DNA of 62,867 nucleotides from a virus. Lineage: Duplodnaviria > Caudoviricetes. Below the pieces are notes generated by a model that was given only the letters and a program-made list of their open reading frames with translations, did not search any database and was not told the DNA's origin. Positions within the stretch are counted from its first letter, which is position 1; each line of letters starts with the position of its first letter. The stretch lies in the IMG/VR virus record IMGVR_UViG_3300024518_003743, positions 1 through 62,867 of that record. One strand, given 5' to 3'. This document shows, piece after piece, positions 31,701 to 57,401 of this stretch. Both the position numbers and the translations under genes were made by a program.

Positions 31701-32898
31701 AGTCTATGTTGCTCTCCTTAAACAACTCCTCTGCCGTCTTCTTGCTTCCAGAAAGCTTTAAGAAGTTAGAGTAATCACTAAACACCTTAGCGTCAAGAGC
31801 CGTTATCTTAGACATGTTAACGCCTTCTGGATTGTCTGCTGCACCTGAGAACTTTGCGTCTGTAGAAACAGTTGGAAACAAGTGCGCTGTAAGGGCGTTC
31901 ATCCCCTCCTTAAACTCTTTGCTCTGAAAATCAGAAACTCCCTGAAGCTTCTCTATATGCTCTTCTCTTCTCTTTACAAATGCTTCAATTTTTTCAGGAG
32001 TGTCAACCCCTTTCATTCTTCCAGCCCTAGCAAGTCGAATCTGCTCCTCAGTCTTTTCTATCCCCTCTTTGTTGGCCTCTGCATTAGCTCCCTCTCTAAA
32101 AATCTTAGAAACATCTATCCCTAGCTGTTCTCCAGTGCTGGCAAACCTTCTCAGGGTGGCATCATAAAAAGTCTTGGTGTCCGGAGCCGTTAATTGAGCT
32201 ACCGCATCAGGGTCATCCTTGTTTCGTTCTACAGCGCTTTGAAGCTGAAAGTCCAAGTGCTCTCCAGCCGTTAAGGTTCGGCTCTCGGGGTCTCTAAGGA
32301 AATCAATAGCTGTTACAACCGTGCCCTCTTCAGGAGACGACCCCCTAATTGTGTGAGATAAGTCTAGGCTTTGCTCTAGCCTAGCAGCCCTGTCGTCTTG
32401 GGATTCAATATCAACAATAGGAGGAGTTACTGCGCCCGCGCTCTCAGCAGCGAACTCATTTAGCTTAACCCCTTCGAGAAGCTGCTTTTGAAAGTCTGGT
32501 CTTTGAAACTGTTCTGGTACGACTACCTCAGGAGCCGGAGTCGTCTCCCCTGTCGGAAGCTGTTGATCCAATTCTGGTGACGCCGAAACGGAAGGAACCA
32601 AATCTGATGTAGAAGAGACCGATTCCGACGGGGTCGTTGTAGTAGGTACTTTTTTTTTAAAGCGAATAGCCGGAGGGAGAGCCCCTAAGCCTGTCGCCAT
32701 CGGGTCAGGTGCGAAGAACTGCGTATTAAACTCTTCAAAGCCCTTAGTGTAGTCTCCAGAACCAGAAAGCGATCCGTGTAGCCTGCCTATTGCTTCAGGT
32801 GTGCTAAACTGAGCTTGAAAATCCTCGAAGCTTTTCGTGTAAGTACCTTTCTCAACTAAGGATGCGTGTAATTTTCTTTTACTTTCTTCTCCTGGCAT
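25795..32898 (-). CDS. giant internal virion / ejection protein (2367 aa)
   Basis: Third of three genes after the muzzle gene; helical, Ala/Glu/Lys-rich; C-terminal VPFTNVVAN...PYSVKIG region typical of large phage internal proteins. Confidence 0.7.
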   Translation of the reverse strand: MPGEESKRKLHASLVEKGTYTKSFEDFQAQFSTPEAIGRLHGSLSGSGDYTKGFEEFNTQFFAPDPMATGLGALPPAIRFKKKVPTTTTPSESVSSTSDLVPSVSASPELDQQLPTGETTPAPEVVVPEQFQRPDFQKQLLEGVKLNEFAAESAGAVTPPIVDIESQDDRAARLEQSLDLSHTIRGSSPEEGTVVTAIDFLRDPESRTLTAGEHLDFQLQSAVERNKDDPDAVAQLTAPDTKTFYDATLRRFASTGEQLGIDVSKIFREGANAEANKEGIEKTEEQIRLARAGRMKGVDTPEKIEAFVKRREEHIEKLQGVSDFQSKEFKEGMNALTAHLFPTVSTDAKFSGAADNPEGVNMSKITALDAKVFSDYSNFLKLSGSKKTAEELFKESNIDFTMNAFDHQRNILEREKAKELAQANAFSPLSAVESGAASVAGSPDEPTSDLVKAEIDRINQKYQMFDILLEMGATENVRSNLGKDLKFIEDNWEEIEEQQLLQKITDEKHERYKSGAMGPVESLDHFLEINIGNPLKRTATSVTHGLSTLPRSFGITGKNTAEIGNFFDKIAEQSDKYLNDEQFENLIPTDLKNTFNEDGSVNWKGVINKTLYAGADMAGLLVPATQFGKMTKLKKALGSEEKARNVGLVASSFNLQHAKNYQAAIDAGLTEDQAVAYTLPTTLATSLLELVSPNQLLVGKKNIVSGTIKNIKKGASTQDALSAAFKTWSREIKAENLQEIMQGLSETQMNVMANNVLGRRAFDDEFTSEDLLETVLITTLLTGTASTPGSISSNTKSKLNSAALLESMESIPELKAKAQRMLLNEEITPEQAQSVVDILDETKAIFDGMPDKASDNAKIELLGLVQEKKELLEKQSSEYVDPAFKEQKEQERAEKVGAIDKEIKAVVDRDSSVKEKGDSVVISDKPETEYKINDSFFSEQEIIEKLDDPVFVESIRNNESVLDISSPSDSVMKKLQEAGLVKSPEDTVEAKSEEDVEAEKTKQKEDAKQEAQPKKDSAKTGKTPDKQTKDEQPEKEVEETVLEEQETKEEAEEKTPRQVLLESLEEDLKVEKESEFGNKENVEFLEREIASIKEEDAKAAEKPPAEVAEAKGEENLKIAVEKMGGSPQAPLSNAAVFDSVVEVAQDATNEGVKAKDLQNTVAERIEAATDGRISKEDISEQFKEIKAAVVKPVKAPKTIVEEVAPGKLQQAADFLRSKKFVKSFNDMNRLKSDPTGLFKGAIDGALEIAATTLEATQKVSEAVNKGLESLRQSEWYKGLSKNGQKASEQMFENTYRGQVAKEDAFIKEEPAAEPVAEGVVEAPVKEESPTEDVDESGKEPKAKDRAFPERLIEDENLSEDIKEGLSEDAKKYIPISNAVTVDEVNLIIKEKGLEQTTKDVLDADNKMSPRVRVSLSQALIKEYNNQGTPEALDNAIEIASEVSRLATELGQGVQAFALWDNISVEGLTVAYSKQLRKAKKNFKKKAGVLYSGTKSGYKKGTTTAAKKAFEKSAKNIKKKNVTAFGLTKSQIEKKKKDALAKYNKAKSSSASVSLIALNQEQIEALGEYGFALFAGGVRTFKEWAASMRSDLNVQDDDVLKGIWASAKNETGKTLSELSEVADIENMVVEHFTSTKKDSDLSKKFQESFGLDADTANGLAKEIEAEFENIVSAERKKSMKRAVGTPSKTSIEAIDNISKENNLTDKQIEDQLEKAFGFTELRPETLEKLNELGAERENRPEGFLRAEKTQEMLSLIEKESGIEKSDLFWSVWYASVLSGHETQLLNAYANILNLGLEFTVSGIQQAVIKGDPKAIGGSILGFFEGSKRAADEARQILKTGVSPSKITSKIEAKPVLENYKFKGGKFRPLNYYKFVLRAMTAVDASAYMAGAGMMKHEVARDAAKEEGLSGRKLRERTSELMNNSTEAFNNAKEQAEQEIQAIEEVEGAISPGERKRRVRIRANEIIEESIPEEVLSDAKDFAAFVTFNYKPKGVIGMISGAMGTIGEKFSPFKLVVPFTNVVANVLNQQIDYTPWGYLRAMGVSPSNWNFTRLDTLAPENNKQRQRQVIKATMGTLLMSGIYMMAKAYGDDEDPFFKITGAGPSDFGKKNQWLSQGNRPYSVKIGDRTWSYQFTPLGVGLSFVGNWMDNEEFGELGEQDMITKSAWALQSSAGGIFDMSFLSGLSGLMSALTSDSNPEKQADKLFKSIGRTGTSFIPNFIKQIDKGFFDNTVYDGKTIQASILKEIPFVRSNIDLNPKLNALGGVIKKQGNRFFTDVTDDKVWLFLGRKGIFIPGASPNVKMLDGVDMTHEEFYQYIKESGTATYDFINENLELLESLEPSQSQDIINKRVSLNRKSAKIGIAVDRIN

Positions 32899-34575: not shown

Positions 34576-35426
34576 TACAGTCCAAATGTTTGAGGAACGT
34601 CAATAGCAGGCGTAGCCGCTTGCTTATCAATACCTAAGCGAATGTTGTCAATCGTTTGGTTTTGAATCTCTTGTGCGTTCGGGTTAATACCAGGTGTCGC
34701 TAAAGGTGGAGCTCCAGCGTTTTCGCCCGCTCCTCCACCAAGGAGTCCAGACACGCTTTGAATGATGTTTCCTATGTCTCCAGCGACTCCGGTTGCTCCG
34801 GTTGCTCCGGCTGCAGGTGTGGCTGCGCTTGAGGCTGCTGGATTTTGGCCAGGTAAAGTTCCTTGGAGCGCTGCTAACGAGCCTAAGTTTTGTAAGGCGT
34901 CCGTTCCCGCCTGAGCAGAGGCCGCTTTGGCTCGGTTTTGATTAAGCAATCCGAGCTCTAATGTTCTTTGGCTTATTCTGGTTCCAAGCTGCTGAGTAAG
35001 CTGTTCTACGAAAGGAAGCCTTTGTTGTCCCTGAACTACCGCTTGGTTTGTAGCTGCCTGGGTTCCCTTTTGTGCTTTAATCAATGCGTTTACCGTGCTT
35101 CCCACATCTCCGCCTGTTGACCTAGCTATACGCCCTTGAGTTGTAGCCCCAACTTTCTGGGCCTCCCCAATGGCGCCTTGAGTGGCCGCGTCTGAGCCAG
35201 TAGAAATGTTTTTTCTAATCTGGTTAAGCTCGTTGATTCTTTGTTGCTCCAAAGGATCTACAAGCCCAGGAGCAAGCTGATTCGCTTTTCTGCCCTGAAC
35301 ACCAGATTCTATAAGGCCTCCAGCCGTCTGCCCAATCTGAGCTCCAACTGCTCCTCCAACGCCCGGTGCGATAGTTGTTCCAGCTACGCCTCCTAAAATT
35401 GCGCCTATTGATTGTCCGTTTGCCAT
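34575..35426 (-). CDS. internal virion / ejection (pilot-like) protein
   Basis: Gly/Ala-rich hydrophobic N-terminus, Gln/Ala-rich helices. Confidence 0.65.
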   Translation of the reverse strand: MANGQSIGAILGGVAGTTIAPGVGGAVGAQIGQTAGGLIESGVQGRKANQLAPGLVDPLEQQRINELNQIRKNISTGSDAATQGAIGEAQKVGATTQGRIARSTGGDVGSTVNALIKAQKGTQAATNQAVVQGQQRLPFVEQLTQQLGTRISQRTLELGLLNQNRAKAASAQAGTDALQNLGSLAALQGTLPGQNPAASSAATPAAGATGATGVAGDIGNIIQSVSGLLGGGAGENAGAPPLATPGINPNAQEIQNQTIDNIRLGIDKQAATPAIDVPQTFGL

Positions 35427-38400
35427 TACTTAATCGGTTTATATTGAAGAACAGTTTCTACAACCTTAAAGTCTTCCTCAAAAATATGAATTACTTTGCA
35501 GAATAGCAATCTAGCTTGTACCCGATCTCTGGTTGCTGAAACCGAAAGGTCCTTTCTAGGAATCTGCTGACCCCATCCGTCGTATTGCTTAAGATACAGC
35601 GGACCTTGAATTCCTGGGTCTAGTGCACAGACTAAATCTCTGTCCTCATCCAAAAACTCTATTCTACTTGGTTTTTGTTCGCCTCTCTTTCCGGTCATGA
35701 CCTCGAAGCGAATGTATTCTTTTTCTACGGCTGGTGAAGGGGAATAGTTCGTTATAAGCGAATATTCTATCGGGCCTCCATTTATTTCAAACCCTCTTTC
35801 GAGCTTGTAGGTCTCAAGACCTCTAAATCCGTACATGTCGTTGTCGCTGAACAGGTAGGTGTCGAACTTATAGTCAAACGACCCCAGCCAGTGATTAGTG
35901 TCTTGAGCAAACACAAACGTTTCCGAGTCTACCGAATCTCGCTCAGTTTCTCCTTCTACAAGAAATTCCGGAAGCCTCTGAGGGTCAAGCTGTAACCAAT
36001 ACTCATTGTGGTTATGGTTGACGCCTCCAGCAATGCGATCAAGATATCCAGCCCTCATTCTGATTAATACAGGGTTAAGCCTGGAGAAGTAGGTGTCCTT
36101 CGCTATGTCTTTTACCACGTTGCTCATTAGCCTATACACGGAGTGGTTGTTAGGAATGTAAAGAGCTTCTTGTTTAACTCTTCCGTCCTCAGTTATAATG
36201 TCCATGGTGCCTTCGCCCATTCCTCTCCACATTTCATCGCTAGAGCCAACCTCATGGTCTAGCCAGTACTGACCTCCAACAAACCTGTCAGAAGCAAGTG
36301 TTGATAAGTCGTTAGCCTCAAGGCTAGAAAGTATTGTTTTGTTGGTCAGGATAAGGCATATCCCTGACTCACAAATAGCGTACAGGTTGTCGCCCTTTCC
36401 TGGGGTTGTTGCATCCCAAGCTTTCTTGATTTCGCCGTCATCATCGTCTAGGTCAAATCGATTCAGCGAAAGGAAAGTCTTTAAACCGGGAGAGTCTTGT
36501 TGATTTATCGCTCTAGACAGGCTCCATGTGACTCCAGTACAGAAGTCGTTCTCCTCTTCGAATCCAAAGTCCGGCTTTGACAAGAACTCAATAGGCCCTC
36601 TAACAGCATAATCAAGATTGATGTTCTGCATGAATCTAAGACCTCCAAACTTCCAAATACTATATTCAAGAGGGTAGTCTTCGAAATAGTCTTCGAACAT
36701 GTTGTTGTCTGACGCAATATCTTCAATGACCCCGGTCGCGAAGCTTGAGTTGTCAAATCGATTCGGACGCATAATGTAGTGAGTCAGCGGGAAGTACTGG
36801 TCAGAAGTTGCCCCGTTGTGGGCATAGTGAACTGCCACCCGGCTTTCGCACGCGAACATAATGCACAGTTGTCGGATATACCCAAGGCTTCCCTTGTTTA
36901 TGTCCTGAATCTTGTTAATCCCTGTGGTTCTAGCAACGATGTACTGACGAGGGTTGATCTCGTACTTTCTAAACGGGAACCCAATGTTGAACACGAACTG
37001 AGTGTCTTCAGCGTTGTCTGAAGCATCTGCCTCACGATCGATTGGAGAGAAGATGGCTTCTCCTACCGTGCTATCTCCTCCGAATACTCGTATTGGCCGT
37101 CTATTGTCATACCTGACTAATATTTTCTGGTCTACCGTTGGGTAGAAATTTGGGACGTTGAATTCGACTGTAAACGCCGTGTCTCCTGCGTTTGTGTGCG
37201 TGTACAATCCAACAACCTCGTTCCCAAGTGCTGCGGCATAGAATCCGTTTGTTGTAATGTCTGTTAAGATTGCTGTTACCTGAGCAGCCGTCAAGAACGT
37301 GCTATCCATAAACACTTCAATGTTTCCGGCTCCGTCTTGGAGGTAGACAAACACCTCATCAGCAGCTCTTGGACCTGTAGAAGACAAATCAGGAATACAG
37401 TCTTCCCACCTTTCGTCTACAAGCTCAAAAAATTGGTCAGGAGTTCCGTCAGCTTGGCCGATAATGCTCTCTACCTTCTGGTAGTGCCCTGTTCCGTAAT
37501 ACTGGTCAATATTTTGATCGATTACATTCTTTCCGTCCTGAACGATGTTTATGATGTACATCGGCTCAGTAAAATCCTTCAGTCCAGCATCGTCGAAGTC
37601 GTTGTTTCCGGTTCCGCCAGAGCCTCCGGCATTGTACACGTTTCCTGTAAGTGAAAGCTCGTAGTACACACCTCTGCCCTCCGTAACAGAAGCTATGCTG
37701 TCAATACTTATAAGAGTATCTCCTCCGTCAGGACCAACAAAAGCTCCTCCGCCAGCAGCGTGAGAATTTCTGTACTTGTTGTATGCTACATATCTGTTTC
37801 CTCCAGAACCAACACCCATTCCCGGGTCTTCTCCTGGGTTTATCTGGCCTTCGTCATGAAGCACCCGCGCGTAGGTAATCATATCTACAAGCCTGTCTCG
37901 TGCCGAGAGCAGTGAGTTCTCTTCAAATGAATACACCTCCGAGAAGAAGCCCAGAGGAGAGACCACCTGAACGCTGTAGTTCTGAGGGTTGCTCGAAATA
38001 TCATCAATAACCGACTGGCTGATTATTCCAGCCTCAATGTCTGGTGAGAAGAACCAAAACTTGTCTTGGTCTTTCGTGGCCGCCGATGCGTTACCAGCAG
38101 CATTAAAGTCTCCTTGGTTTAGGGCATACGATCCAATTCCTTGGCATACAACCCTCCCTGCAGGTGCTGTTCTAACTACTGAAAATGCTTTTGCCCACGA
38201 CGGAAGATTGCTAATACCTCCAATGGCAACTCCATGGGCATAATAGTTTGGCGCGAAGCCCTCAGGGTTGTACGCTCTAGTTACCGGACCAGCATCTGCC
38301 TCGAAATTGACTTGGTAGTTGTGGTCTCCGGTTGAGTCGTTCTGGTCGGTAGGCCTGTATGGGTCATAGCCAATTTCATCGCCACCAACGAATAGTCCAT

Positions 38401-39895
38401 GCCCAGAATCCGGACACCCAAGGCTATTTACCTTTCCTTGAGACTTTGATCCGTCGTCTAGTATGTTTTGGAACCCACATTTGTCCGTCTTACTGACAGC
38501 ATCTTCCAAATCGAATATCTCATGCGTCTGAGTTACGGCACTCTGCAGGTTTGCTGCCTCGGCAGTTCCGAAATACGAGAGCAGTTGAGAGTCGACGTCT
38601 GCCTCAGCTCTTCTGTTCGGTATTTGGAAGTTCTGAATCCCAGCATCGTCCTCGGCAAAACCTCGACCGCCAAGTGCGTCGAATAGGTTTACAGCAAAGC
38701 TGAACCTCTCTCCGCCGGTGTAGTTTTTGTAGTACGTGTGATTCACCGGGTCGTTGTGCCCTGCTTTTCCGAGCTTCTGAACGATTGGGAAAATCTTCTT
38801 GCCATTGAACTCGTCAAATACAAGGTTAGTCTCTTTTGAAGCGGTGCTGTAGTTCATTAGAACTATCTTCTTGTCGTGGTATCTGATTGCTTTCGCTTTC
38901 TCGATAAACGACAATTCGCTTTCTCCTTCTCCGTCAGCAAGGGTGTCTTCTACGTTTGATTGAATCGGGTCAACAAACTCTCGAACAGATATCTCCCCTG
39001 GAGAAACCTCAAGTTTTGCGATTACCTCTCCTTGCGGAACAAAGTCAAGACCTCCAGCAGCCTGATAGGACACTCGACGGATCTCAATAAAATCATAGTT
39101 AACCAGATTCGTAATTCGAAACTTAAGCTTAATCCCGAAGCTCGTTGGAGCTGTTACGTCAGGACTGTCGCCATAACTCTTCGTATACGGGTACTGGTTG
39201 CTTCCTGTTCCCGACCCTTGAAGCACAGGAATTGGAGGGGTTTGGTGCCCCCAGTTTGTTCGGTCTCCTTCGTCATTAACGTATCTAAGAGAGTACTGAT
39301 AAGAGCCTATAGGAAGTCCGCCTCCGCCCCCGACATTCTCAAGACCTGTAAAAACAGGGATGTCAAGTGGAGAATCTAGATTTACCGTGTATAAAGCTGG
39401 ATTGAAGTTCGTGAAATACTTGTCAGGGTCTAGCGTGAGTGAGTCGATGATGTCCTGAATGTTGAATATCATCGGAGTCGTGTTATTGTCGGTGATATAC
39501 CACTCTCCTCCTTTACAGTTCTCGTTTCTGTCACACTGGATAGGGAAGTCCACTAGCCAAGGCATGTCTGGGGACTGACCCATTATAACGCCGTCGATAC
39601 GGATGATTGGAGCCTCTGCCCCATTTCTATCCACCCAGATTTCAACAATGTTCTTGTTAATATCTTTTTCACCTATGCAAACCCAATCGCCAGGAATGTT
39701 CTGAGCTGGGAACTCAACCTCTTCTCCGCGAATCTTAACGTGTGATCGTTTTCCGCCAGTAGAATCGGATATGCGACCGTTCTTACTGTCGTAGTATTCT
39801 CCGTCATTATCGGCACCAGAAAGCTCAGGGTCAATGTCAACATTCGCCCCTTTCCAGTTCGATTTTGCGTCTTTTGGATGGTGTTCCGTCTTCAT
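35426..39895 (-). CDS. tail nozzle/muzzle (P22 gp10 / crAss muzzle-like) protein
   Basis: 1489 aa, beta-rich; GGGGLPIGSYQYSLRY...TNW motif; position after ring proteins. Confidence 0.7.
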   Translation of the reverse strand: MKTEHHPKDAKSNWKGANVDIDPELSGADNDGEYYDSKNGRISDSTGGKRSHVKIRGEEVEFPAQNIPGDWVCIGEKDINKNIVEIWVDRNGAEAPIIRIDGVIMGQSPDMPWLVDFPIQCDRNENCKGGEWYITDNNTTPMIFNIQDIIDSLTLDPDKYFTNFNPALYTVNLDSPLDIPVFTGLENVGGGGGLPIGSYQYSLRYVNDEGDRTNWGHQTPPIPVLQGSGTGSNQYPYTKSYGDSPDVTAPTSFGIKLKFRITNLVNYDFIEIRRVSYQAAGGLDFVPQGEVIAKLEVSPGEISVREFVDPIQSNVEDTLADGEGESELSFIEKAKAIRYHDKKIVLMNYSTASKETNLVFDEFNGKKIFPIVQKLGKAGHNDPVNHTYYKNYTGGERFSFAVNLFDALGGRGFAEDDAGIQNFQIPNRRAEADVDSQLLSYFGTAEAANLQSAVTQTHEIFDLEDAVSKTDKCGFQNILDDGSKSQGKVNSLGCPDSGHGLFVGGDEIGYDPYRPTDQNDSTGDHNYQVNFEADAGPVTRAYNPEGFAPNYYAHGVAIGGISNLPSWAKAFSVVRTAPAGRVVCQGIGSYALNQGDFNAAGNASAATKDQDKFWFFSPDIEAGIISQSVIDDISSNPQNYSVQVVSPLGFFSEVYSFEENSLLSARDRLVDMITYARVLHDEGQINPGEDPGMGVGSGGNRYVAYNKYRNSHAAGGGAFVGPDGGDTLISIDSIASVTEGRGVYYELSLTGNVYNAGGSGGTGNNDFDDAGLKDFTEPMYIINIVQDGKNVIDQNIDQYYGTGHYQKVESIIGQADGTPDQFFELVDERWEDCIPDLSSTGPRAADEVFVYLQDGAGNIEVFMDSTFLTAAQVTAILTDITTNGFYAAALGNEVVGLYTHTNAGDTAFTVEFNVPNFYPTVDQKILVRYDNRRPIRVFGGDSTVGEAIFSPIDREADASDNAEDTQFVFNIGFPFRKYEINPRQYIVARTTGINKIQDINKGSLGYIRQLCIMFACESRVAVHYAHNGATSDQYFPLTHYIMRPNRFDNSSFATGVIEDIASDNNMFEDYFEDYPLEYSIWKFGGLRFMQNINLDYAVRGPIEFLSKPDFGFEEENDFCTGVTWSLSRAINQQDSPGLKTFLSLNRFDLDDDDGEIKKAWDATTPGKGDNLYAICESGICLILTNKTILSSLEANDLSTLASDRFVGGQYWLDHEVGSSDEMWRGMGEGTMDIITEDGRVKQEALYIPNNHSVYRLMSNVVKDIAKDTYFSRLNPVLIRMRAGYLDRIAGGVNHNHNEYWLQLDPQRLPEFLVEGETERDSVDSETFVFAQDTNHWLGSFDYKFDTYLFSDNDMYGFRGLETYKLERGFEINGGPIEYSLITNYSPSPAVEKEYIRFEVMTGKRGEQKPSRIEFLDEDRDLVCALDPGIQGPLYLKQYDGWGQQIPRKDLSVSATRDRVQARLLFCKVIHIFEEDFKVVETVLQYKPIK

Positions 39896-48620: not shown

Positions 48621-50948
48621 TTAATAGATTGGAACTCTCACTTCTACCCTGGTTAGCTTTCCGTCCTTGCCCCTAACAAGCTTCTGCTGAGTCTTGTATC
48701 TCTCCATTTCGGATTTGATTTCGAAAGGGGTTAGATGTTCGTAGCTTAGACTACAAATATAGGCAAAAACAATAGCAAACAACACATCATCGTGGTACTT
48801 CTGCGGGTCTACTGTCCCCCAGCTCTCGTTGCCTGATTTTGTGATCGTGCACACAAATGTTCTGAGCTGCACAAAAGGGGTGGTCATGTATACGCGGTCT
48901 CCGTACACCGTAAAGAACTCGTGCATCTTGCTGACAATGAATCTGGTTCTGTTCCCTCTGTTGTCAATTCCGTAAGTGTTCTGGCCGCCGTGGAAGGCTT
49001 GCGGAAGCTCCGTTCCCCACACCAATGAGTCCTCAAAGCCCTTTGCTTCCTTGTAATCGGTGTAGGCAGTTCCAATATTAGCCTCCACTAGCTCTTTTGC
49101 AGACTTGGACGACTCCGCCGAGTAGTATATGCCCAGCAACATGCACTGCAGGAAGGTGTACTTGTGGTCGGAGTCCCTGTAGTCCACAAATGCAGATACG
49201 GTCTTGTAGTGGGCATCAAATATAGCTGAGGCCATGTTCGAGAACCCGTTGTCTGACATAATGGGGTCAGTTCCCATGTAGTACCTGTGCATCCAGTTCT
49301 TCTGAGGCTCCATGAACATCGTTACGGATGCTCTCGGGTCTCCATCGTCTACCGCCACAAATGTAGCTCCTGTTATAGCGTAAGGCACGTCGCTGTTCTC
49401 GTCTGATGGTTTGGAGGTGTCGAATATCGGTTCGAAATACCCCTTCTTGGATCTGAGCCTATGTTCAACATTGTAAATCTTCTCGATGTTCTGGTTAATC
49501 CAATCGATTCCCACCAGAAGCTTCGATGAGGTCAGGAACATGTCTTCAACGATAGACGGGTAGTGCTGGCGGAACTGAACTCTTCTAGATTCCTTTTCCG
49601 GCCCTTCGATCGTATATGCTCTACGCTCAGATTCGTAGTGCTCCTTGGTAATACCTGGTCTGGTGGTCCAATCGAAGAATATAGGGATGATGCCGTATGT
49701 AAAGTCACGATTCTTCCATGCAGTGAGAGCCCGGAAGTATTCTTCCTCGTATGCCTTACCTCCTTTATCCATTTCGCCACCTGTACCCCAGATAATGATT
49801 TGACGCTTCATCTCAATCTTGTTTGTTTCCGGGTTCTGCCAGAACATGGTCGGACGAGCTTCCTTCATCATCTTCCCTAGAATGCCAATGTAACCAGCCT
49901 CATCAATCATAACGAGTTGAGGTGAACCACCGTTAATCGCTGCAACCGATGGAGCAACCACCCTGATGGATGAGTTCATTCCTTTCTTGACGCCCTTCTT
50001 GATGCCTTTTTTCCGGAGGCGGAACAGGTTGTCACGGTCGTTATCTACAGTAGGCCGGAACCACCTAGGGAGCTCCGTAAATGGATACTTAATCTTATCA
50101 TCGAAAATCTCAATACCCGATTCCTTATCCATGGTAATGAACTTGAGGAAGAAGTTTCTGTTGGTCGTAATCTTCTTCAGGGCACAAGCCCCGTATGTCG
50201 ATGTTGCTGCAATCTGACGAGGCTTACCCGTCATGCTGGAGTATCCACAATCGAACATGAAAGCGATAACCTTGTGCACAGGCTTGGCGATGTATTTCAT
50301 GGAGCCGGAAGACATGTCCCCTTCCTTAAGCATCAGGTACTTGTCCATGAAGTAGAGGGTGTTTTCCCGGCACCGTCTTATTTCCTCGTAGGCGTAGGCT
50401 CTAGCATCTCCGTCGTTACTGTAGTCGGTAATGTCTCCGTTTTCGGCCAGCCAATCGGAGGCCTGCTGGCAGTACATCTGGAAAGGAACATACGAACGCA
50501 TGTTCTGGAATCCATTGTTAATGCTGTCTATCCAGCGAATGAATTTTTCGTCGTGCTCGATGACACTATCAGGCATCCAATCAGACGTCTTGACGTCCTT
50601 TCCTCCCCTGTACTTAAATAAATCTGATTCTTGAAGCTTATCATAGGTCTCATTGTCAAGGATCTCGAAATCCCTGTGCATTCCTTCACCATCGTCTTCG
50701 ATGATGTCGATAAGTTTGTCTGATTCTATTTGCTTCTCCGTTTTTACGGAGTCGTCGGTCTGGACAGCCCTTCTCTTACGAGATTTCTTAGGCTTGTCAA
50801 TTACATCGATTCTGCCGGCATCTTTGAGCTGCTCTTCTTGCTCCAGGGATATCGGTAGTCCTTTGCTGTGAAGGTCTTCTATGAAGTCGAGATAGTTCTC
50901 TCTAATGACCTTCTTCTCTACTGCTTTCTGCTTTCTTTCTTCTGACAT
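48621..50948 (-). CDS. terL: terminase large subunit
   Basis: KPRQIAATS Walker A-like, MIDEAG Walker B, WGTGG, QHYP, YMGTDP and HDDVLFA nuclease motifs. Confidence 0.9.
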   Translation of the reverse strand: MSEERKQKAVEKKVIRENYLDFIEDLHSKGLPISLEQEEQLKDAGRIDVIDKPKKSRKRRAVQTDDSVKTEKQIESDKLIDIIEDDGEGMHRDFEILDNETYDKLQESDLFKYRGGKDVKTSDWMPDSVIEHDEKFIRWIDSINNGFQNMRSYVPFQMYCQQASDWLAENGDITDYSNDGDARAYAYEEIRRCRENTLYFMDKYLMLKEGDMSSGSMKYIAKPVHKVIAFMFDCGYSSMTGKPRQIAATSTYGACALKKITTNRNFFLKFITMDKESGIEIFDDKIKYPFTELPRWFRPTVDNDRDNLFRLRKKGIKKGVKKGMNSSIRVVAPSVAAINGGSPQLVMIDEAGYIGILGKMMKEARPTMFWQNPETNKIEMKRQIIIWGTGGEMDKGGKAYEEEYFRALTAWKNRDFTYGIIPIFFDWTTRPGITKEHYESERRAYTIEGPEKESRRVQFRQHYPSIVEDMFLTSSKLLVGIDWINQNIEKIYNVEHRLRSKKGYFEPIFDTSKPSDENSDVPYAITGATFVAVDDGDPRASVTMFMEPQKNWMHRYYMGTDPIMSDNGFSNMASAIFDAHYKTVSAFVDYRDSDHKYTFLQCMLLGIYYSAESSKSAKELVEANIGTAYTDYKEAKGFEDSLVWGTELPQAFHGGQNTYGIDNRGNRTRFIVSKMHEFFTVYGDRVYMTTPFVQLRTFVCTITKSGNESWGTVDPQKYHDDVLFAIVFAYICSLSYEHLTPFEIKSEMERYKTQQKLVRGKDGKLTRVEVRVPIY

Positions 50949-50962
50949 CAATACTAAATACG

Positions 50963-53715: not shown

Positions 53716-54218
53716 AAAGAGAATTGCTAATATTTTTAGGAGGAGCGACTTGGGCTATTTTTGTCTTCTGGACGTTCGGATTGCTGGTAGGACCAGAAAA
53801 GGAAATAGTTCACAAGGAGCCTGGACACTTTGTGGAAACGCAAGTTATACACGACACATTGTTCATAGTCAAGGAATGGCCACCGGTTTTGCAACTGACA
53901 GGGACAACCTATCAGCCTACAGTGGCTCAGTGCGACAGCACTCCATTCAACACTGCTGACGGTTCGTTCATCAACGCCGTGGAGCTCCAGTATAGAAAGC
54001 TGAGGTGGTGCGCCGTAAGCAGGGACCTGCTCAAGCACAAAGGTGGCCCGTTCGAATACGGCGACACGATTACCGTTGTGTGCGAAGAACAGTTTTACTG
54101 TGATAGGTGGGTTGTTCACGACTGCATGGCAGCTAAGTACAATAACTGCATTGATTTTTTAACCTGGTTCGACCGTCCGAGAATTGGTCGGGATCCAAAT
54201 ATACTCGTGTTCAAATGA
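53712..54218 (+). CDS. membrane-anchored 3D-domain (MltA-like) protein
   Basis: N-terminal TM; TTY...QCDSTPFNTADG, AVSRDL, YGDTI, VHDCM, IDF. Confidence 0.75.
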   Translation: MKRELLIFLGGATWAIFVFWTFGLLVGPEKEIVHKEPGHFVETQVIHDTLFIVKEWPPVLQLTGTTYQPTVAQCDSTPFNTADGSFINAVELQYRKLRWCAVSRDLLKHKGGPFEYGDTITVVCEEQFYCDRWVVHDCMAAKYNNCIDFLTWFDRPRIGRDPNILVFK

Positions 54219-54457
54219 GTAAGGAAGAGCATAAGCTACCCTTGCCCTATATCCAGCTATGGCTATCCAAGACAGAGAAGGAAGGTAGAGGGTTTGCGGT
54301 ATCGGATGAGATGATGCCTCACCTAGACGAGGCGCTATTCTTTGGAAAGGATGACGCGAATCGCATTATATCAACACTGATGAAGCAAAGGGAGTGGAGA
54401 TTCCTCCCCTGCACGGACATCGAGCGTATTTTATTCACGAACAACAAAATGTTTTAA
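54215..54457 (+). CDS. hypothetical protein
   Basis: 80-aa ORF, ATGA overlap. Confidence 0.55.
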   Translation: MSKEEHKLPLPYIQLWLSKTEKEGRGFAVSDEMMPHLDEALFFGKDDANRIISTLMKQREWRFLPCTDIERILFTNNKMF

Positions 54458-54458
54458 T

Positions 54459-54773
54459 ATGGAATGTGTATTCTGCGGGGACGACTCGCACAGCTACAGG
54501 GACTGCCCGGAGAAGATAACTCCTCACTCGTCCCACATCTACGCGACTCCCATGCGAGACCTCGAGAGAAAGAAGGGGGATTTGATTCTCCCGCCGGACA
54601 AACGAACTACCGCGCCGAAAAGAGCTCGCATAATCTCCGTGGATCCGAGAATAGAGGATTGCGAAGTGAAAGAAGGGGACGTAATACTATATCCAGCGAA
54701 CCTCGCCTGGAAAATGAATGATCGACTGTTTCGAATTTTCGAAGCAAACATAATGGGGATAATACCGGAATAG
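54459..54773 (+). CDS. GroES-like co-chaperonin with N-terminal CCHC zinc knuckle
   Basis: CVFCGDDSHSYRDC (CX2CX4HX4C); KKGDLILP...IISVDP...VKEGDVILY...EANIMGII. Confidence 0.7.
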   Translation: MECVFCGDDSHSYRDCPEKITPHSSHIYATPMRDLERKKGDLILPPDKRTTAPKRARIISVDPRIEDCEVKEGDVILYPANLAWKMNDRLFRIFEANIMGIIPE

Positions 54774-54774
54774 T

Positions 54775-54987
54775 ATGAGCAAAGATTGGATCCAAATAGA
54801 AACATGCAAGCAGGCAAACGACCGAGTAGCGGCAATGGTTGACATTGAAGCAATGAAGGCCGAGAACCAGATGATGGTACACCTCGGAAAGAAGCCTAAA
54901 TACGAATGGGATGACTTCAACGCCGTGAAGGTGCGGTACGACCTAGACTACACTGGACTTCTGAACAAGAAGAAGAAACTAGAGTAA
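54775..54987 (+). CDS. hypothetical protein
   Basis: 70-aa ORF. Confidence 0.55.
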   Translation: MSKDWIQIETCKQANDRVAAMVDIEAMKAENQMMVHLGKKPKYEWDDFNAVKVRYDLDYTGLLNKKKKLE

Positions 54988-54990
54988 TGC

Positions 54991-55013
54991 AAAAAGGGGC
55001 CTAAAAGGGCCCC
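54991..55013 (-). terminator. intrinsic terminator
   Basis: GGGGCC-CTTTTA-GGCCCC-TTTTT. Confidence 0.75.
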
Positions 55014-55124
55014 AGCTTGGTCGTGTTCCAGTCCTAGTGCTCAACCTCGGGTTTGACTTTGAAATCTTACCTCGGGAGCTCCGGTGTTTTTCCACCGCTG
55101 ATCGCTTTCGCATCCACAGCTTAC
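54991..55124 (-). ncRNA. candidate ~130-nt structured small RNA
   Basis: Promoter-like TATATTCG (55127-55134), hairpins GC-GAAA-GC and CGGTG-GAAAAA-CACCG, own terminator. Confidence 0.5.
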
Positions 55125-55139
55125 CACGAATATACAAAT

Positions 55140-55167
55140 AAAAAAGCACCAACCAATGGCTGATGCT
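55140..55167 (-). terminator. intrinsic terminator of tmRNA coding piece
   Basis: AGCATCAGCC-ATT-GGTTGGTGCT followed by a T run. Confidence 0.75.
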
Positions 55168-55309
55168 TCTTCTACAGACGTGTCGTGCCTATGGGACGTT
55201 TCTACGCCACAGCTCTAAGCTGAGGTGAGAAAAGAGGTATTACTTTTCCTGTTATAGGATCAGACTCTCGAAGTATACATTTATAATGCAGTCAAAACCA
55301 GTCGGCCCC
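55140..55309 (-). ncRNA. ssrA: tmRNA coding piece of a permuted two-piece tmRNA; tag (A)GKVIPLFSPQLRAVA
   Basis: Starts GGGGCCGACTGGTTTTGAC at 55309; resume context TATAACA|GGA; tag frame 55249-55202 ends GCT GTG GCG TAG. Confidence 0.85.
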
Positions 55310-55393
55310 AGTATAATCGCTTTACGTCATTACCTTTACACTCTTCCACAATGGAGATGAGGTTTGTCCTAGACGGGCAATACTGTTTTCTTG

Positions 55394-55450
55394 TGGAGCC
55401 GGAGGGTATCGAACCCTCGTCCAAACACCGTTTCTTCTCAAACGAATCTG
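55394..55450 (-). ncRNA. ssrA: tmRNA acceptor piece of a permuted two-piece tmRNA
   Basis: GGAC-GAGGG-TTCGATA-CCCTC-CGGCTCC-A; pairs with GGGGCCG to give a G3.U70 alanine acceptor stem. Confidence 0.85.
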
Positions 55451-55453
55451 GTG

Positions 55454-55461
55454 CAAATATA
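55454..55461 (-). promoter_or_regulatory. Bacteroidota -7 promoter (TATATTTG) for tmRNA precursor
   Basis: Exact TAnnTTTG 3 nt before the first paired segment of the acceptor piece. Confidence 0.7.
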
Positions 55462-55467
55462 ATAAAG

Positions 55468-55538
55468 TTCTCCGAGATAGATTCGAACTACCGTTTTCTG
55501 GCCCAAAACCAGACGTCCTGCCCCTAGACGACCGGAGA
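55468..55538 (-). tRNA. tRNA-Gln (anticodon TTG)
   Basis: Acceptor TCTCCGG/TCGGAGA, anticodon arm TCTGG-TTTTGGG-CCAGA, T arm GGTAG-TTCGAAT-CTATC; CCA not encoded. Confidence 0.9.
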
Positions 55539-55544
55539 GTTATG

Positions 55545-55618
55545 TCGGGGTGACAGGGATCGAACCTGCGACCTGATGCTCCCAAAGCACCCGCGCTACC
55601 AAACTGCGCTACACCCCG
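55545..55618 (-). tRNA. tRNA-Pro (anticodon TGG)
   Basis: Acceptor CGGGGTG/CACCCCG, anticodon arm GGTGC-TTTGGGA-GCATC, T loop TTCGATC; CCA not encoded. Confidence 0.95.
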
Positions 55619-55630
55619 ATTTACTACAAC

Positions 55631-55659
55631 AAAAAAGCCCCACTATAAATAGCAGGGCT
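55631..55659 (-). terminator. attenuator terminator upstream of tRNA-Pro/tRNA-Gln
   Basis: AGCCCTGCTAT-TT-ATAGTGGGGCT-TTTTT, about 12 nt before tRNA-Pro. Confidence 0.8.
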
Positions 55660-55687
55660 CCAAAGTATTGTATGCGCAACTGCCTTC

Positions 55688-55738
55688 CTATTCGGTAGTG
55701 GGTTGCGGTTGTTGAGTTTCAAATGAAATCTTCTTCAT
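55688..55738 (-). CDS. leader peptide MKKISFETQQPQPTTE (Gln/Pro-sensing attenuator)
   Basis: ATG AAG AAG ATT TCA TTT GAA ACT CAA CAA CCG CAA CCC ACT ACC GAA TAG; ATG 4 nt after promoter-like TACATTAG (55743-55750). Confidence 0.75.
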   Translation of the reverse strand: MKKISFETQQPQPTTE

Positions 55739-55751
55739 GGGGCTAATGTAC

Positions 55752-55823
55752 AAAAAAAGCCCCACATTCCCATGCGAGGCTTTTAAAATGATCGATAGTA
55801 AGTAGGCCAATACCGTTTGCGAC
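55752..55823 (-). ncRNA. candidate ~70-nt small RNA
   Basis: Promoter TACATTTG (55828-55835); terminator AAGCCTCGCAT-GGGA-ATGTGGGGCTT plus T run (55752-55784). Confidence 0.5.
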
Positions 55824-55851
55824 AAGACAAATGTAGTAAACTTTTCTTTAC

Positions 55852-55925
55852 AAAAAGAAACCCCTCTCCGAACAAGTCAGAAAGGGGTGTCGATTGAGGG
55901 CCCCGTGGGTGGGGCCTTTCACACA
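55852..55925 (-). ncRNA. candidate ~70-nt small RNA
   Basis: Promoter-like TACATTTA (55929-55936); hairpin GGCCCC-ACCCAC-GGGGCC; terminator ACCCCTTTCTGA...TCGGAGAGGGGT-TTCTTTTT. Confidence 0.5.
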
Positions 55926-55961
55926 CGGTAAATGTACGGAAATTTTCTTATCTTACACCTG

Positions 55962-56156
55962 ATGGCTACTTCACAAAATCTTCGACCAATATGCGTTTAC
56001 TGCGGTGAACCGGTCGCCCTGGCTTTAGTGAAGGATGGAAACAGACCTCCTGAGGGAGATAATTTCCTAGACTGGCACCATGTCAAGCATACATGTGAAG
56101 AGTCGGAGCAAGCCTTAAAGATCCGGAACGCTGGGAAGCCGCTTAAGGTTGTTTAG
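55962..56156 (+). CDS. small Zn-binding hypothetical protein
   Basis: CVYC...HTC; ATG at 55962. Confidence 0.5.
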   Translation: MATSQNLRPICVYCGEPVALALVKDGNRPPEGDNFLDWHHVKHTCEESEQALKIRNAGKPLKVV

Positions 56157-56430
56157 GCTCTTCTTCGAAAATTATAGTCGTTGTTCTGGTTACGCTGACA
56201 AGCTCAGCTTTAAGAAGCTTGTTGTAATTCGCATTCACCCCGCATGTGTTTTTTGGGTCGTACGTCATGTCGGTGGTCTTCTTACAGAATTCCGGATCGA
56301 TTATGTCGGCCCTATCGAAAGAAACGAAATCAGGAGAGTCATATCCGTCAACCCCCCAGTACTTACCTTCGAACTTAGCTGCCACGCCTTTCTCGATGTA
56401 TACGCTCTCAAACAGCATCTCCTTGCTCAT
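56143..56430 (-). CDS. hypothetical protein
   Basis: 95-aa ORF ending the - strand accessory operon. Confidence 0.55.
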   Translation of the reverse strand: MSKEMLFESVYIEKGVAAKFEGKYWGVDGYDSPDFVSFDRADIIDPEFCKKTTDMTYDPKNTCGVNANYNKLLKAELVSVTRTTTIIFEEEPKQP

Positions 56431-56614
56431 CCTTTACAATTTTAATAGTGAATCCTATCTTCTCCAGCCCGTTGTACATCTTGCACAGTGGCATCTCCGA
56501 CCCTTTCAGGTAGGAATTGATCTGCTGTCGGGACACTCCGAAAATCTTCGCGAGCTCGACATTGTTCATTCCTCGCTTCTTCTTGAGCGATCTAAGTATT
56601 TTTCTAGTTGTCAT
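56408..56614 (-). CDS. XRE/Cro-type HTH regulator
   Basis: LKKKRGMNNVELAKIFGVSRQQINSYLKG. Confidence 0.8.
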   Translation of the reverse strand: MTTRKILRSLKKKRGMNNVELAKIFGVSRQQINSYLKGSEMPLCKMYNGLEKIGFTIKIVKDEQGDAV

Positions 56615-56862
56615 TATTTTTTGTTCCAGTCCATGAAGTCTTCAAAGGTTACTTCGTTGACGTTTGTAATATCGATTGTCTTCCAGGGAACCCCAAGGTA
56701 TGCCCCCTGGTCTATGGCGAACTTAACAGAGCTTATGTATGGAGCTCCTTTTTTCGGATCGTTCATTGGAGCATAAGTTATGCAGTCTCCGTCATAGAAC
56801 ACCCTCTCTCCTCGAGAATTTAGAGTAGTGTAAAATACAATAAAATATCTTCGCCTCTTCAT
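56614..56862 (-). CDS. hypothetical protein
   Basis: 82-aa coupled ORF. Confidence 0.55.
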   Translation of the reverse strand: MKRRRYFIVFYTTLNSRGERVFYDGDCITYAPMNDPKKGAPYISSVKFAIDQGAYLGVPWKTIDITNVNEVTFEDFMDWNKK

Positions 56863-57401
56863 GACATCACCCCCACTTGTTTAAGAACCCGCTTGAGTTC
56901 GGATTTGTTTTTGATCACTCCCTCGAAAACCTTGTCCCTGATTTTCCAGTTTTTGCCTGTCTTCGAAATCTTGACAATGTTTCTTTCGTACATCGAAATA
57001 AGGAAATCGTCATCGTTCAAATCGACTGCATAAGACCCTTCAAACGGAGCTCCGGCTGGGAAGCCTCCCAAATTAAGGATGTCTGCTTCGTCCAAGTACT
57101 TGACGCGGATAGCATCATTTTCAACAGCTCTTACAACATCGCCTATGTACATTTCAGCCGGATCATCGAAATGAAGCTCCCCAGGGAAATCCGGGTCTTC
57201 TAGCCTCTTTCTGAACTCAGCCTTTTTCCATTCTTTTTCGTATGTAATCGGGAGGGTCATGTGAGCCATAACCCCCAAGTAAATCCGAGGCCTGTACTCG
57301 AACTCGAATCCGGGATGGAACTCCCCAATCTCTGGCACATAGTACCTCGAATCAATACTTGCTTTTGTGGCTGGAAGGCCTTCTTTTTCTTCTTTTTTCA
57401 T
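56859..57401 (-). CDS. phage hypothetical protein
   Basis: YYVPEIGEFHPGFEFE...RVKYLD...FEGVIKNKSELKRVLKQVG; ATG at 57401. Confidence 0.65.
   Translation of the reverse strand: MKKEEKEGLPATKASIDSRYYVPEIGEFHPGFEFEYRPRIYLGVMAHMTLPITYEKEWKKAEFRKRLEDPDFPGELHFDDPAEMYIGDVVRAVENDAIRVKYLDEADILNLGGFPAGAPFEGSYAVDLNDDDFLISMYERNIVKISKTGKNWKIRDKVFEGVIKNKSELKRVLKQVGVMS

Follow-up and report, generated by a model that had tools for sequence, protein, structure and literature searches.

The DNA analysed here, referred to as the window, is the whole of the uncultured-virus record IMGVR_UViG_3300024518_003743 (62,867 bases, linear, estimated to be 87% complete). On its minus strand, at 55461-55135, lies what is very probably a phage-encoded, circularly permuted gene for transfer-messenger RNA (tmRNA, ssrA), belonging to a family found in phages of Bacteroidota. 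tmRNA is the RNA that rescues stalled ribosomes, and permuted tmRNA genes have been described for three bacterial clades and for mitochondria. An initial annotation had proposed a two-piece tmRNA at this place, and every element was found in the order and at the positions it gave on the minus strand, as were the pairings it named: the acceptor stem (P1) with G3.U70, the weak GCAUU/GGUGU, CUUC/GAAG and GAGUCUG/CAGAUUC. The features of the gene, with lengths in nucleotides (nt), are as follows.

55461-55135, minus strand: circularly permuted tmRNA gene, in the order promoter motif, acceptor piece, intervening segment, coding piece, terminator
55454..55461, minus strand: TATATTTG, a match to TAnnTTTG and putative promoter
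55394..55450, minus strand: acceptor piece, 57 nt before CCA addition, placed by sequence, Rfam alignment and comparison, with a presumed exact 5' end
55450-55444, minus strand: P2c strand CAGAUUC of the acceptor piece
between the P2c and P2b strands, minus strand: internal loop GUUUGA of the acceptor piece
55437-55434, minus strand: P2b strand GAAG of the acceptor piece
55429-55423, minus strand: P2a strand GGUGUUU of the acceptor piece
55422-55419, minus strand: GGAC of the acceptor piece
55418-55402, minus strand: T arm GAGGG/UUCGAUA/CCCUC
55401-55395, minus strand: acceptor 3' strand CGGCUCC
55394, minus strand: discriminator A
55310..55393, minus strand: intervening segment, 84 nt unrelated in sequence, which would have to be excised, a loop closed by the acceptor stem in the predicted precursor
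55135..55309, minus strand: coding piece, ~175 nt, starting GGGGCCGACUGGUUUUGAC at G55309
55309-55303, minus strand: acceptor 5' strand GGGGCCG, complementary to CGGCUCC with G.U at the third pair
after the acceptor 5' strand, minus strand: D-loop analogue ACUGGUUUUGAC of the coding piece
55290-55285, minus strand: P2a strand of the coding piece
55273-55270, minus strand: P2b strand CUUC of the coding piece
55267-55261, minus strand: P2c strand GAGUCUG of the coding piece
from P2c to the resume codon, minus strand: 11-nt linker AUCCUAUAACA of the coding piece, followed by the tag frame and 3' hairpins
55202..55249, minus strand: tag reading frame, placed by alignment to relatives
55140..55172, minus strand: intrinsic terminator hairpin, then a T run, as the 3' end of the coding piece

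The tRNA-like domain has an acceptor stem of 7 base pairs with G3.U70 (G55307 pairs with U55397), a T arm with a GUUCGA-type loop and a D-loop analogue. Its 3' half lies upstream of its 5' half on one strand, and the two halves carry complementary acceptor strands, which is the arrangement of the permuted form. In the minimum free energy fold of the entire precursor, both the T arm and P1 form unaided (z -2.1), and RNAduplex found P2b (GAAG/CUUC) and P2c (CAGAUUC/GAGUCUG) unprompted. The four pseudoknots (PK1-PK4) that are typical of, and not essential to, tmRNA were not seen in the window gene, for which no dedicated pseudoknot search was made. There is no room for pseudoknot 1, because the resume codon follows P2c after only 11 nt, and there is no region for pseudoknots 2-4, as the RNA ends in hairpins and the terminator soon past the tag stop. 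As predicted from its sequence, the window tmRNA is a minimal form.

The family set (n=30) consists of the window, 25 viral contigs, a prophage, a contig from a metagenome-assembled genome (MAG), Chryseobacterium phage MA9V-3 and the crAss-like phage cr60_1. A degenerate pattern of the permuted gene order, with acceptor positions left as N, returned six and then six more viral contigs at two spacer ranges. When 185,579 species genomes were searched with it, two contigs matched, one of 1.6 Mb from Zeaxanthinibacter sp. PT1 (Flavobacteriaceae) and one of 2,964 bases binned with an Izemoplasma MAG. A pattern of the tag end only gave 13 further viral contigs, and all 13 have a permuted tRNA-like domain upstream. 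In isolate phages, blastn of the gene matched the T-arm region of annotated tmRNAs in four crAss-like phages, MA9V-3 and Cellulophaga phages; by Rfam and ARAGORN, MA9V-3 and cr60_1 are permuted and Cellulophaga phage Calle_1 is one-piece. In all family members the gene order is the same, the helices covary and the tag frame is open. Acceptor complementarity was not built into the set, since the patterns left those positions as N, and by an automatic rule 28 of the 30 have a T arm followed by seven bases that all pair with the GGGG start (7/7), while two were placed by eye.

Covariation was counted on a de-permuted alignment of the 29 distinct rows of this set, on which RNAalifold predicts P1, the T arm and P2a. 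In P1 all pairs are canonical in 29/29 rows and G3.U70 is invariant, while five, three and two pair types occur at positions 5, 6 and 7, respectively. The two outer T-arm pairs show three to four pair types, and the four inner P2a pairs show many, being paired in 23-26 of the 29 rows. When the acceptor tail was paired with the coding piece by RNAduplex, most members were read as sharing the P2b and P2c layout with an asymmetric internal loop, often GUUGAA opposite GGA. Cognate tail and coding piece form more stable duplexes than non-cognate combinations (mean -10.7 vs -7.4 kcal/mol; reached in 0/10,000 permutations), and for the window acceptor tail its own coding piece is the best partner of 29. 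Anatomy, Rfam and family covariation together support the initial claim of a circularly permuted two-piece gene. Two further helices were considered and rejected. A trans pseudoknot between the internal loop GUUGAA and AUAAC before the resume codon was rejected because it does not covary: by eye, the loop varies in four relatives (L013, L026, L033 and L037) and AUAAC stays fixed. A helix between the acceptor 5' tail and the post-stop region is present in the window fold, but as a family feature it gave duplex z-scores mostly near or above 0.

The tag would be read from the resume codon GGA (55249-55247) through 15 codons (55249-55205; GKVIPLFSPQLRAVA) to the stop TAG (55204-55202). From the aligned resume codon the frame is open in 30/30 family members; it ends in Ala or Val, is mostly 14-16 codons long and begins with Gly in 24 of the 30. 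Fifteen tags end in QLRAVA, of which 13 were selected by that pattern and only those of the window and of one viral contig (L001) are independent. The latter was found via the tRNA-like domain alone; its tag, AKVITPSFTQLRAVA, differs from that of the window by synonymous changes (for example GCU/GCC, GCG/GCA and, at the stop, UAG/UAA), and the same tag was called independently by ARAGORN. The N-terminal motif GK[VTS]I..F was not selected for and recurs in sets collected by unrelated patterns. In 17 of the 21 permuted calls made by ARAGORN among relatives, its tag equals that of the alignment.

With covariance models, RF04321 (tmRNA_permuted) matched the window at 46.5 bits (E 5.5e-8) when 54950-55650 (701 nt) was searched with E-value reporting, and the aligned part includes the T arm, the first helix (P2a) and the acceptor stem that spans the intervening segment. 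Five of the six relatives tested pass this model (70.4, 70.3, 68.2, 64.7 and 63.1 bits), and cr60_1 scores 40.3. Of the 28 relatives examined, ARAGORN called 21 as permuted and missed seven. At gathering thresholds, Rfam lists only two tRNAs in the window. The one-piece model RF00023 gave no window match at the gathering threshold or at E up to 10, although matches overlapping those of beta_tmRNA would be masked by clan filtering. Of the models for single clades, beta_tmRNA scored best in the window (33.3 bits; cut-off 84), alpha (cut-off 50) and cyano scoring lower. In the Rfam comparison that the initial annotation had proposed, the general permuted model matched the gene below its cut-off and the clade models failed.

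Several observations weigh against the reading as a permuted tmRNA gene. The RF04321 score misses the gathering cut-off of 47 bits by 0.5 bit, and the alignment covers only model positions 21-119 of 213. ARAGORN, which had also been suggested as a check on native and de-permuted sequence, found no tmRNA in the window, none in the excised region at thresholds to ps40 and nothing on six in-silico de-permuted joins. P2a is weak (GCAUU/GGUGU, with 6/7 positions paired, three of them G.U, and one U.U), the T loop UUCGAUA is unique in the 30-member set, and CCA is not encoded, as CAA follows A55394. The fold of the precursor offers the acceptor 5' tail an alternative partner, GUCUG near 55185. The resume codon of the window is assigned by homology only, and neither the permuted order nor the tag end counts as independent evidence, because the collecting patterns demanded one or the other. 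No RNA run was among the runs listed for 54000-57000, and no isolate phage resembles the window phage, blastn of 7.9 kb and tblastn of the portal protein having come back empty.

Rearrangement of a one-piece gene by mis-assembly, which the initial annotation had named as a possible refutation, is excluded. At least 58% of the words sampled from 54000-57000 are present in each of nine seawater metagenome runs, six of which are a possible source of the record. Contigs from the other three runs (X7, X8 and X9) cover 55084-55750, 54900-55471 and 55254-55750 with no differences or gaps, so the same arrangement is found outside the possible sources. In the same runs, contigs of other organisms match the T-arm and acceptor part only, at 90-95%, with ends at 55393 and 55426-55427, and then run on as ordinary one-piece tmRNA. 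Hence the phage co-occurs with bacteria whose tRNA-like domains are very similar.

The host of the window phage is probably a marine member of Bacteroidota, and the initial assignment to a Bacteroidota phage is supported indirectly, by the likeness to the one-piece tRNA-like domain, the promoter motif, the rarity of Shine-Dalgarno-like cores and the carriers of the relatives. Between the window tRNA-like domain and that of the one-piece tmRNA of Zeaxanthinibacter, 19/19 and 30/32 bases agree. Of 301 Bacteroidota genomes sampled, 24 contain the signature GGGGNNGANTGGTTTTGAC, and all 12 occurrences checked are one-piece tmRNAs. In 4,516 nt of window non-coding DNA there are 12 copies of TAnnTTTG, which we take to be the Bacteroidota -7 promoter motif (3.8+-1.8 in shuffles; reached in 0/500), and a Shine-Dalgarno-like core stands before only 4 of 79 crudely called window genes. 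The carriers of relatives include MA9V-3, cr60_1 (Crassvirales) and a Flavobacteriaceae prophage; MA9V-3 was isolated on Chryseobacterium (PMC13120357). Zeaxanthinibacter sp. PT1 has its own one-piece tmRNA (RF00023, 160.3 bits; tag GEDNYALAA) besides the permuted gene (RF04321, 63.1 bits), and the latter lies in a prophage, judging from its neighbours RIIA/RIIB, primase, helicase, DNA polymerase, exonuclease and integrase. Within the phylum to which the Izemoplasma MAG belongs, 1/81 genomes had the signature, solely on the small contig of that MAG itself, which suggests that this contig is a mis-binned phage fragment. In 151 sampled Bacteroidota genomes, RF04321 matched only the seed genome (G001), and the family was found in 0 of the 150 others.

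As the initial annotation had stated, no smpB is encoded in the window, and no SmpB was found in any of the 11 records searched (the window and 10 relatives, three complete genomes included), so host factors would be needed. ClpX and ClpP domains were likewise not found in the window. For MA9V-3, a published table lists a ClpX-like ATP-binding subunit at PV245944 26938-27777, ~4 kb from the permuted tmRNA (PMC13120357). Searches by an exact-type DNA pattern and, in viral contigs, by portal protein gave no close relatives of the window phage, and its 2367-aa virion protein has weak matches to three records. The window phage thus has no close cultured relative. The flanks of the relatives gave only two weak matches to window proteins, and since almost no flank proteins are in common, the family has no shared phage backbone.

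The two-piece tmRNAs of Alphaproteobacteria and of some Betaproteobacteria and cyanobacteria (RF01849, RF01850 and RF01851, merged in RF04321; PMC11915505) have the same order of acceptor piece, intervening segment and coding piece. Like them, the family has a tRNA-like domain, predicted to form from two RNAs, with G3.U70, a tag frame past the intermolecular P2 and fewer pseudoknots. It differs in failing the clade models, in reaching about half the conventional RF04321 score, in a tag that starts with Gly and not Ala, in the CCA that is not encoded, in a D-loop analogue shorter by one base with U for C, in leaving no room for pseudoknot 1 and in its carriers, which are phages of a phylum whose own tmRNA is one-piece. 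Marine myophages (Methylophilales phage Melnitz and pelagimyophages) likewise have a permuted ssrA, and no phage SmpB is reported for them in the available text (PMC9004378). Those forms were assigned to the alphaproteobacterial lineage (PMC9004378), whereas the affinities of the window gene are with Bacteroidota. Melnitz also carries a glutamine riboswitch (PMC9004378), whereas Rfam found no riboswitch family in the window at 54950-55650.

Closer to the window are the one-piece tmRNAs of the proposed hosts and the tmRNAs already annotated in their phages. The Zeaxanthinibacter one-piece gene (L015) resembles the window gene in its tRNA-like domain, the Gly resume codon, a bulged U on the 3' strand of P2a and an incompletely encoded CCA; it differs in being 398 nt long with pseudoknots and the tag GEDNYALAA, whereas the window gene is permuted, its predicted mature length is ~235 nt and its tag has 15 residues, with QLRAVA at the end. 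The annotated tmRNAs of MA9V-3 (PV245944) and cr60_1 (NC_055891), and also those of cr10_1, cr114_1 and cr125_1, belong to the same family. MA9V-3 and cr60_1 have the permuted order, Gly-start tags (GNVIDINKYVAKLEVAA and GNTSYVMDYTRLAA) and the P2b/P2c layout, but the annotated genes are distant from the window in sequence and blastn matches the T-arm region only. Cellulophaga phage Calle_1 (MT732432; RF00023, 86.6 bits), a flavobacterial phage, has the 5' signature GACUGGUUUUGAC and AAAC-GGA at the resume site of the family, but unlike the window its gene has the standard 5'-to-3' order and a longer body. Both forms of the gene thus exist in phages of Bacteroidota. By its AAAC-GGA context, the tag of the Calle_1 tmRNA (L024:1172-1533) would start before the AQIEANMEAVNAILNLEVAVGV given by ARAGORN and would be unusually long.

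Where the permuted form came from can be approached by a control set. Viral contigs were searched with the conventional permuted pattern (encoded CCA, UUCGAC), which matched 100 stretches, and the 20 shortest of 80 loci were used. All 20 pass RF04321, at 91-155 bits, and 18 of them reach the cut-off of a clade model (beta for 17, alpha for one); 19 are permuted according to ARAGORN, with tags starting in Ala (17) or Asp (2). In contrast, none of the seven family members tested passes the alpha, beta or cyano model (best beta 47.7 against the cut-off of 84), and their RF04321 scores are 40-70 bits. Membership of a described permuted clade, named at the outset as a finding that would undo the novelty of the gene, is thus not what the models indicate. 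The family and the flavobacterial one-piece tmRNA have in common the Gly start, the D-loop analogue shorter by one base and a U for an otherwise conserved C, and neither Rfam consensus sequence has the shorter D-loop analogue or the U in UUUUGAC. As the clade models fail where the controls pass, and as these traits are those of flavobacterial one-piece tmRNA, a separate origin from the Bacteroidota one-piece tmRNA appears to be favoured over transfer from another clade. We infer that the independent permutation in a phage lineage proposed in the initial annotation is the better-supported reading, in view of the clade models (0/7) and the Gly tag start (24/30). A trace of tandem duplication, as overlap between acceptor start and coding end, was looked for and rejected: the window gives 13/14 with one gap (p 0.07), and only 2 of 30 members reach p<0.05.

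It could be argued that the family descends from one of the known permuted lineages (alpha, beta or cyano), was transferred to phages of Bacteroidota and was then reshaped, with no separate permutation. Conventional permuted tmRNAs are common in viral contigs, as the 100 matched stretches indicate, the topology is the same in all permuted forms, RF04321 still aligns the tRNA-like domain even though it was built from the three clades, and short tRNA-like domains could converge on the host form under selection by host SmpB and AlaRS. We nevertheless regard such a transfer as unlikely, because conventional phage copies pass the clade models and family members do not, the two sets do not overlap in RF04321 score, and Gly comes first in most family tags and in 12/12 Bacteroidota one-piece tags but in none of the 19 called control tags. 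The shorter D-loop analogue and the U in UUUUGAC are flavobacterial one-piece traits, and the one-piece tmRNA of Calle_1 has the same signature and AAAC-GGA resume context. Less probable still is that the RNA is a decoy, soaking up host SmpB, AlaRS or ribosomal A sites and so blocking trans-translation in the host. A form lacking the coding sequence in mycobacteriophage DS6A is said to inhibit tmRNA (PMC11915505), and the very reduced body without pseudoknots, the mimicry of the host tRNA-like domain and the missing SmpB would suit such a role; a decoy needs no reading frame, however, and in this family the frame is open throughout, of similar length, with Ala or Val ends and synonymous changes.

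We give as little weight to the view that the window copy is decaying and non-working in an otherwise functional family. That it falls below the Rfam threshold and is missed by ARAGORN, and that its P2a is weak and its T loop unusual, is what decay would predict, but the helices P1, P2b and P2c and the T arm are intact, as are the tag frame, promoter motif and terminator; relatives are also missed by ARAGORN, and contigs from three further runs carry the identical sequence. An assembly artefact, or a leftover of integration into host ssrA (an attP fragment beside captured host sequence), is hardly credible: the 3' end of ssrA is a frequent integration site of phages, which then carry that fragment (PMC9004378, PMC11590407), but independent contigs span the whole gene without differences and, in 30 unrelated contexts, the acceptor strands of the two halves covary. 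The body is also not a copy of host tmRNA, because it is without pseudoknots and has a different tag, and no integrase was met in the 29 window open reading frames (ORFs) scanned, which are not all of its genes. The fullest form of the preferred reading, which we put forward tentatively and would not yet call probable, is that the phages of Bacteroidota hold a fourth, independently arisen lineage of permuted tmRNA, derived from the one-piece tmRNA of the phylum, perhaps inside phage genomes, stripped of pseudoknots and equipped with its own conserved 15-residue tag (GK.I..F...QLRAVA), unlike the host GENNYALAA type. Permutation inside phage genomes is suggested by Calle_1, as it keeps the one-piece form with the same signature.

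If this permuted tmRNA is functional, the minus strand would be transcribed from the TATATTTG promoter or together with two upstream tRNAs, ending at the terminator 55172-55140. In the precursor, 55401-55395 would pair with GGGGCCG at 55309-55303 and loop out the 84-nt intervening segment. Host RNase P may then cut 5' of G55309, and host 3'-end enzymes and the CCA-adding enzyme may finish the end past A55394. The predicted products are an acceptor RNA of ~60 nt and a coding RNA of ~175 nt, which P1 and an intermolecular helix of three parts (P2a, P2b and P2c) would join. Host AlaRS would charge the complex via G3.U70, host SmpB would bring it to stalled ribosomes, and the ribosomes would switch to GGA, add GKVIPLFSPQLRAVA and stop at UAG. 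Transcription, cleavage into two pieces, charging, use of SmpB, tagging and the fate of tagged proteins are all predictions.

A two-piece tmRNA has been described in phage Melnitz, and of 133 unique phage tmRNAs identified by ARAGORN 53 were two-piece, mostly marine and from the three known lineages (PMC9004378). RF04321 with its three main permuted clades includes 79 phage sequences (PMC11915505), and tmRNA genes have been noted in flavobacterial phages, the form not being given in the available text (PMC8776804, PMC11590407). The records of MA9V-3 and the crAss-like phages say 'tmRNA' without mention of permutation; the available text of the MA9V-3 paper lists a tmRNA and contains no occurrence of 'permuted' (PMC13120357). 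We found no published description of permuted tmRNA in Bacteroidota phages, though such genes may be listed in the supplementary tables of PMC9004378 and PMC11915505. The kind of RNA is known, and the family appears to be a lineage of it that has not been described and has a minimal form. It is widespread in Bacteroidota phages and already partly annotated in public records, and the novelty claimed at first was overrated: there are at least 30 carriers, ARAGORN flags most of the relatives examined, some GenBank records say tmRNA, and two-piece tmRNAs of marine phages are published (PMC9004378). Phage annotations under-report these genes, because ARAGORN misses the window and a quarter of those relatives (7/28) and the Rfam cut-off is missed so narrowly.

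A separate origin, if true, would be a further independent origin of permuted tmRNA, confined to phages and in a one-piece phylum, and would show how far the molecule can be reduced, to a tRNA-like domain with one long helix and a tag frame. The system offers a natural test of whether the SmpB and ribosome of a one-piece host accept a two-piece RNA; if so, SmpB would function with two-piece tmRNA in a phylum whose own tmRNA is never of that form. Proteins rescued by the phage may also be marked for a different fate (another protease, another adaptor or escape from degradation). With a tag unlike that of the host, the purpose of phage tmRNAs becomes testable, as extra rescue capacity or as redirection of tagged proteins.

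Two tRNA genes lie directly upstream of the tmRNA gene.

55544-55618, minus strand: tRNA-Pro(UGG), CCA not encoded
55467-55538, minus strand: tRNA-Gln(UUG), CCA not encoded

Both sit between a terminator at 55661-55634 and the tmRNA gene and possibly are co-transcribed with it. The TATATTTG motif is 6 nt past tRNA-Gln and 3 nt 5' of the first paired base of the acceptor piece. Further upstream on the minus strand, terminator-like hairpins at 55888-55860 and 55661-55634 bracket a TACATTTG promoter-like motif at 55835; within this bracket (55634-55888), ~170 nt without an ORF longer than 47 codons may be a small transcript. Downstream, 54990-55139 (minus strand) is an ORF-poor stretch of 150 nt from the tmRNA terminator to a second strong terminator at 55013-54996, and its fold is not unusual (z -1.1) and gave no Rfam match. 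The structural module, on the minus strand, has large ORFs at 25795-32898 (2367 aa) and 35426-39895 (1489 aa), of which the former matches T7-like podovirus internal virion protein families only at residues 1765-2320. A 776-aa ORF at 48621-50951, adjoining the portal gene, has no Pfam or PHROG match.

The relatives show some variation around the gene. The intervening segment is 39-234 nt long, and in three of them it contains a complete tRNA-Ala(UGC) (L003:3674-3748, L005:4786-4860 and L006:4462-4536), placed 4 nt past the tmRNA discriminator and ~12 nt before the coding piece, so that tRNA processing would free both tmRNA ends; in a further relative a tRNA-Ala lies just upstream of the acceptor piece (L009:2641-2714). 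The intervening segments of L008, L011, L012 and L036 have a conserved element of the form GTTAACCCGTCACGTTAGTACGG, and L028-L031 and L032/L034 each have other conserved blocks there; Rfam searches of L008 and L010 gave no family matching the intervening segments. A few bases past the tag stop, L001, L002, L013, L028-L032 and L034 have a G+C-rich hairpin with AGCGAAA in the loop, usually followed by a T run; the window instead has AUAGGCAC and GUAGAAGAAGCAU after the stop codon, in common with L003. In cr60_1 (L026), two RAGATH RNAs lie within 1.4 kb upstream of the permuted tmRNA, RAGATH-9 at 40-197 (142.5 bits) and RAGATH-20 at 1132-1233 (122.4 bits).

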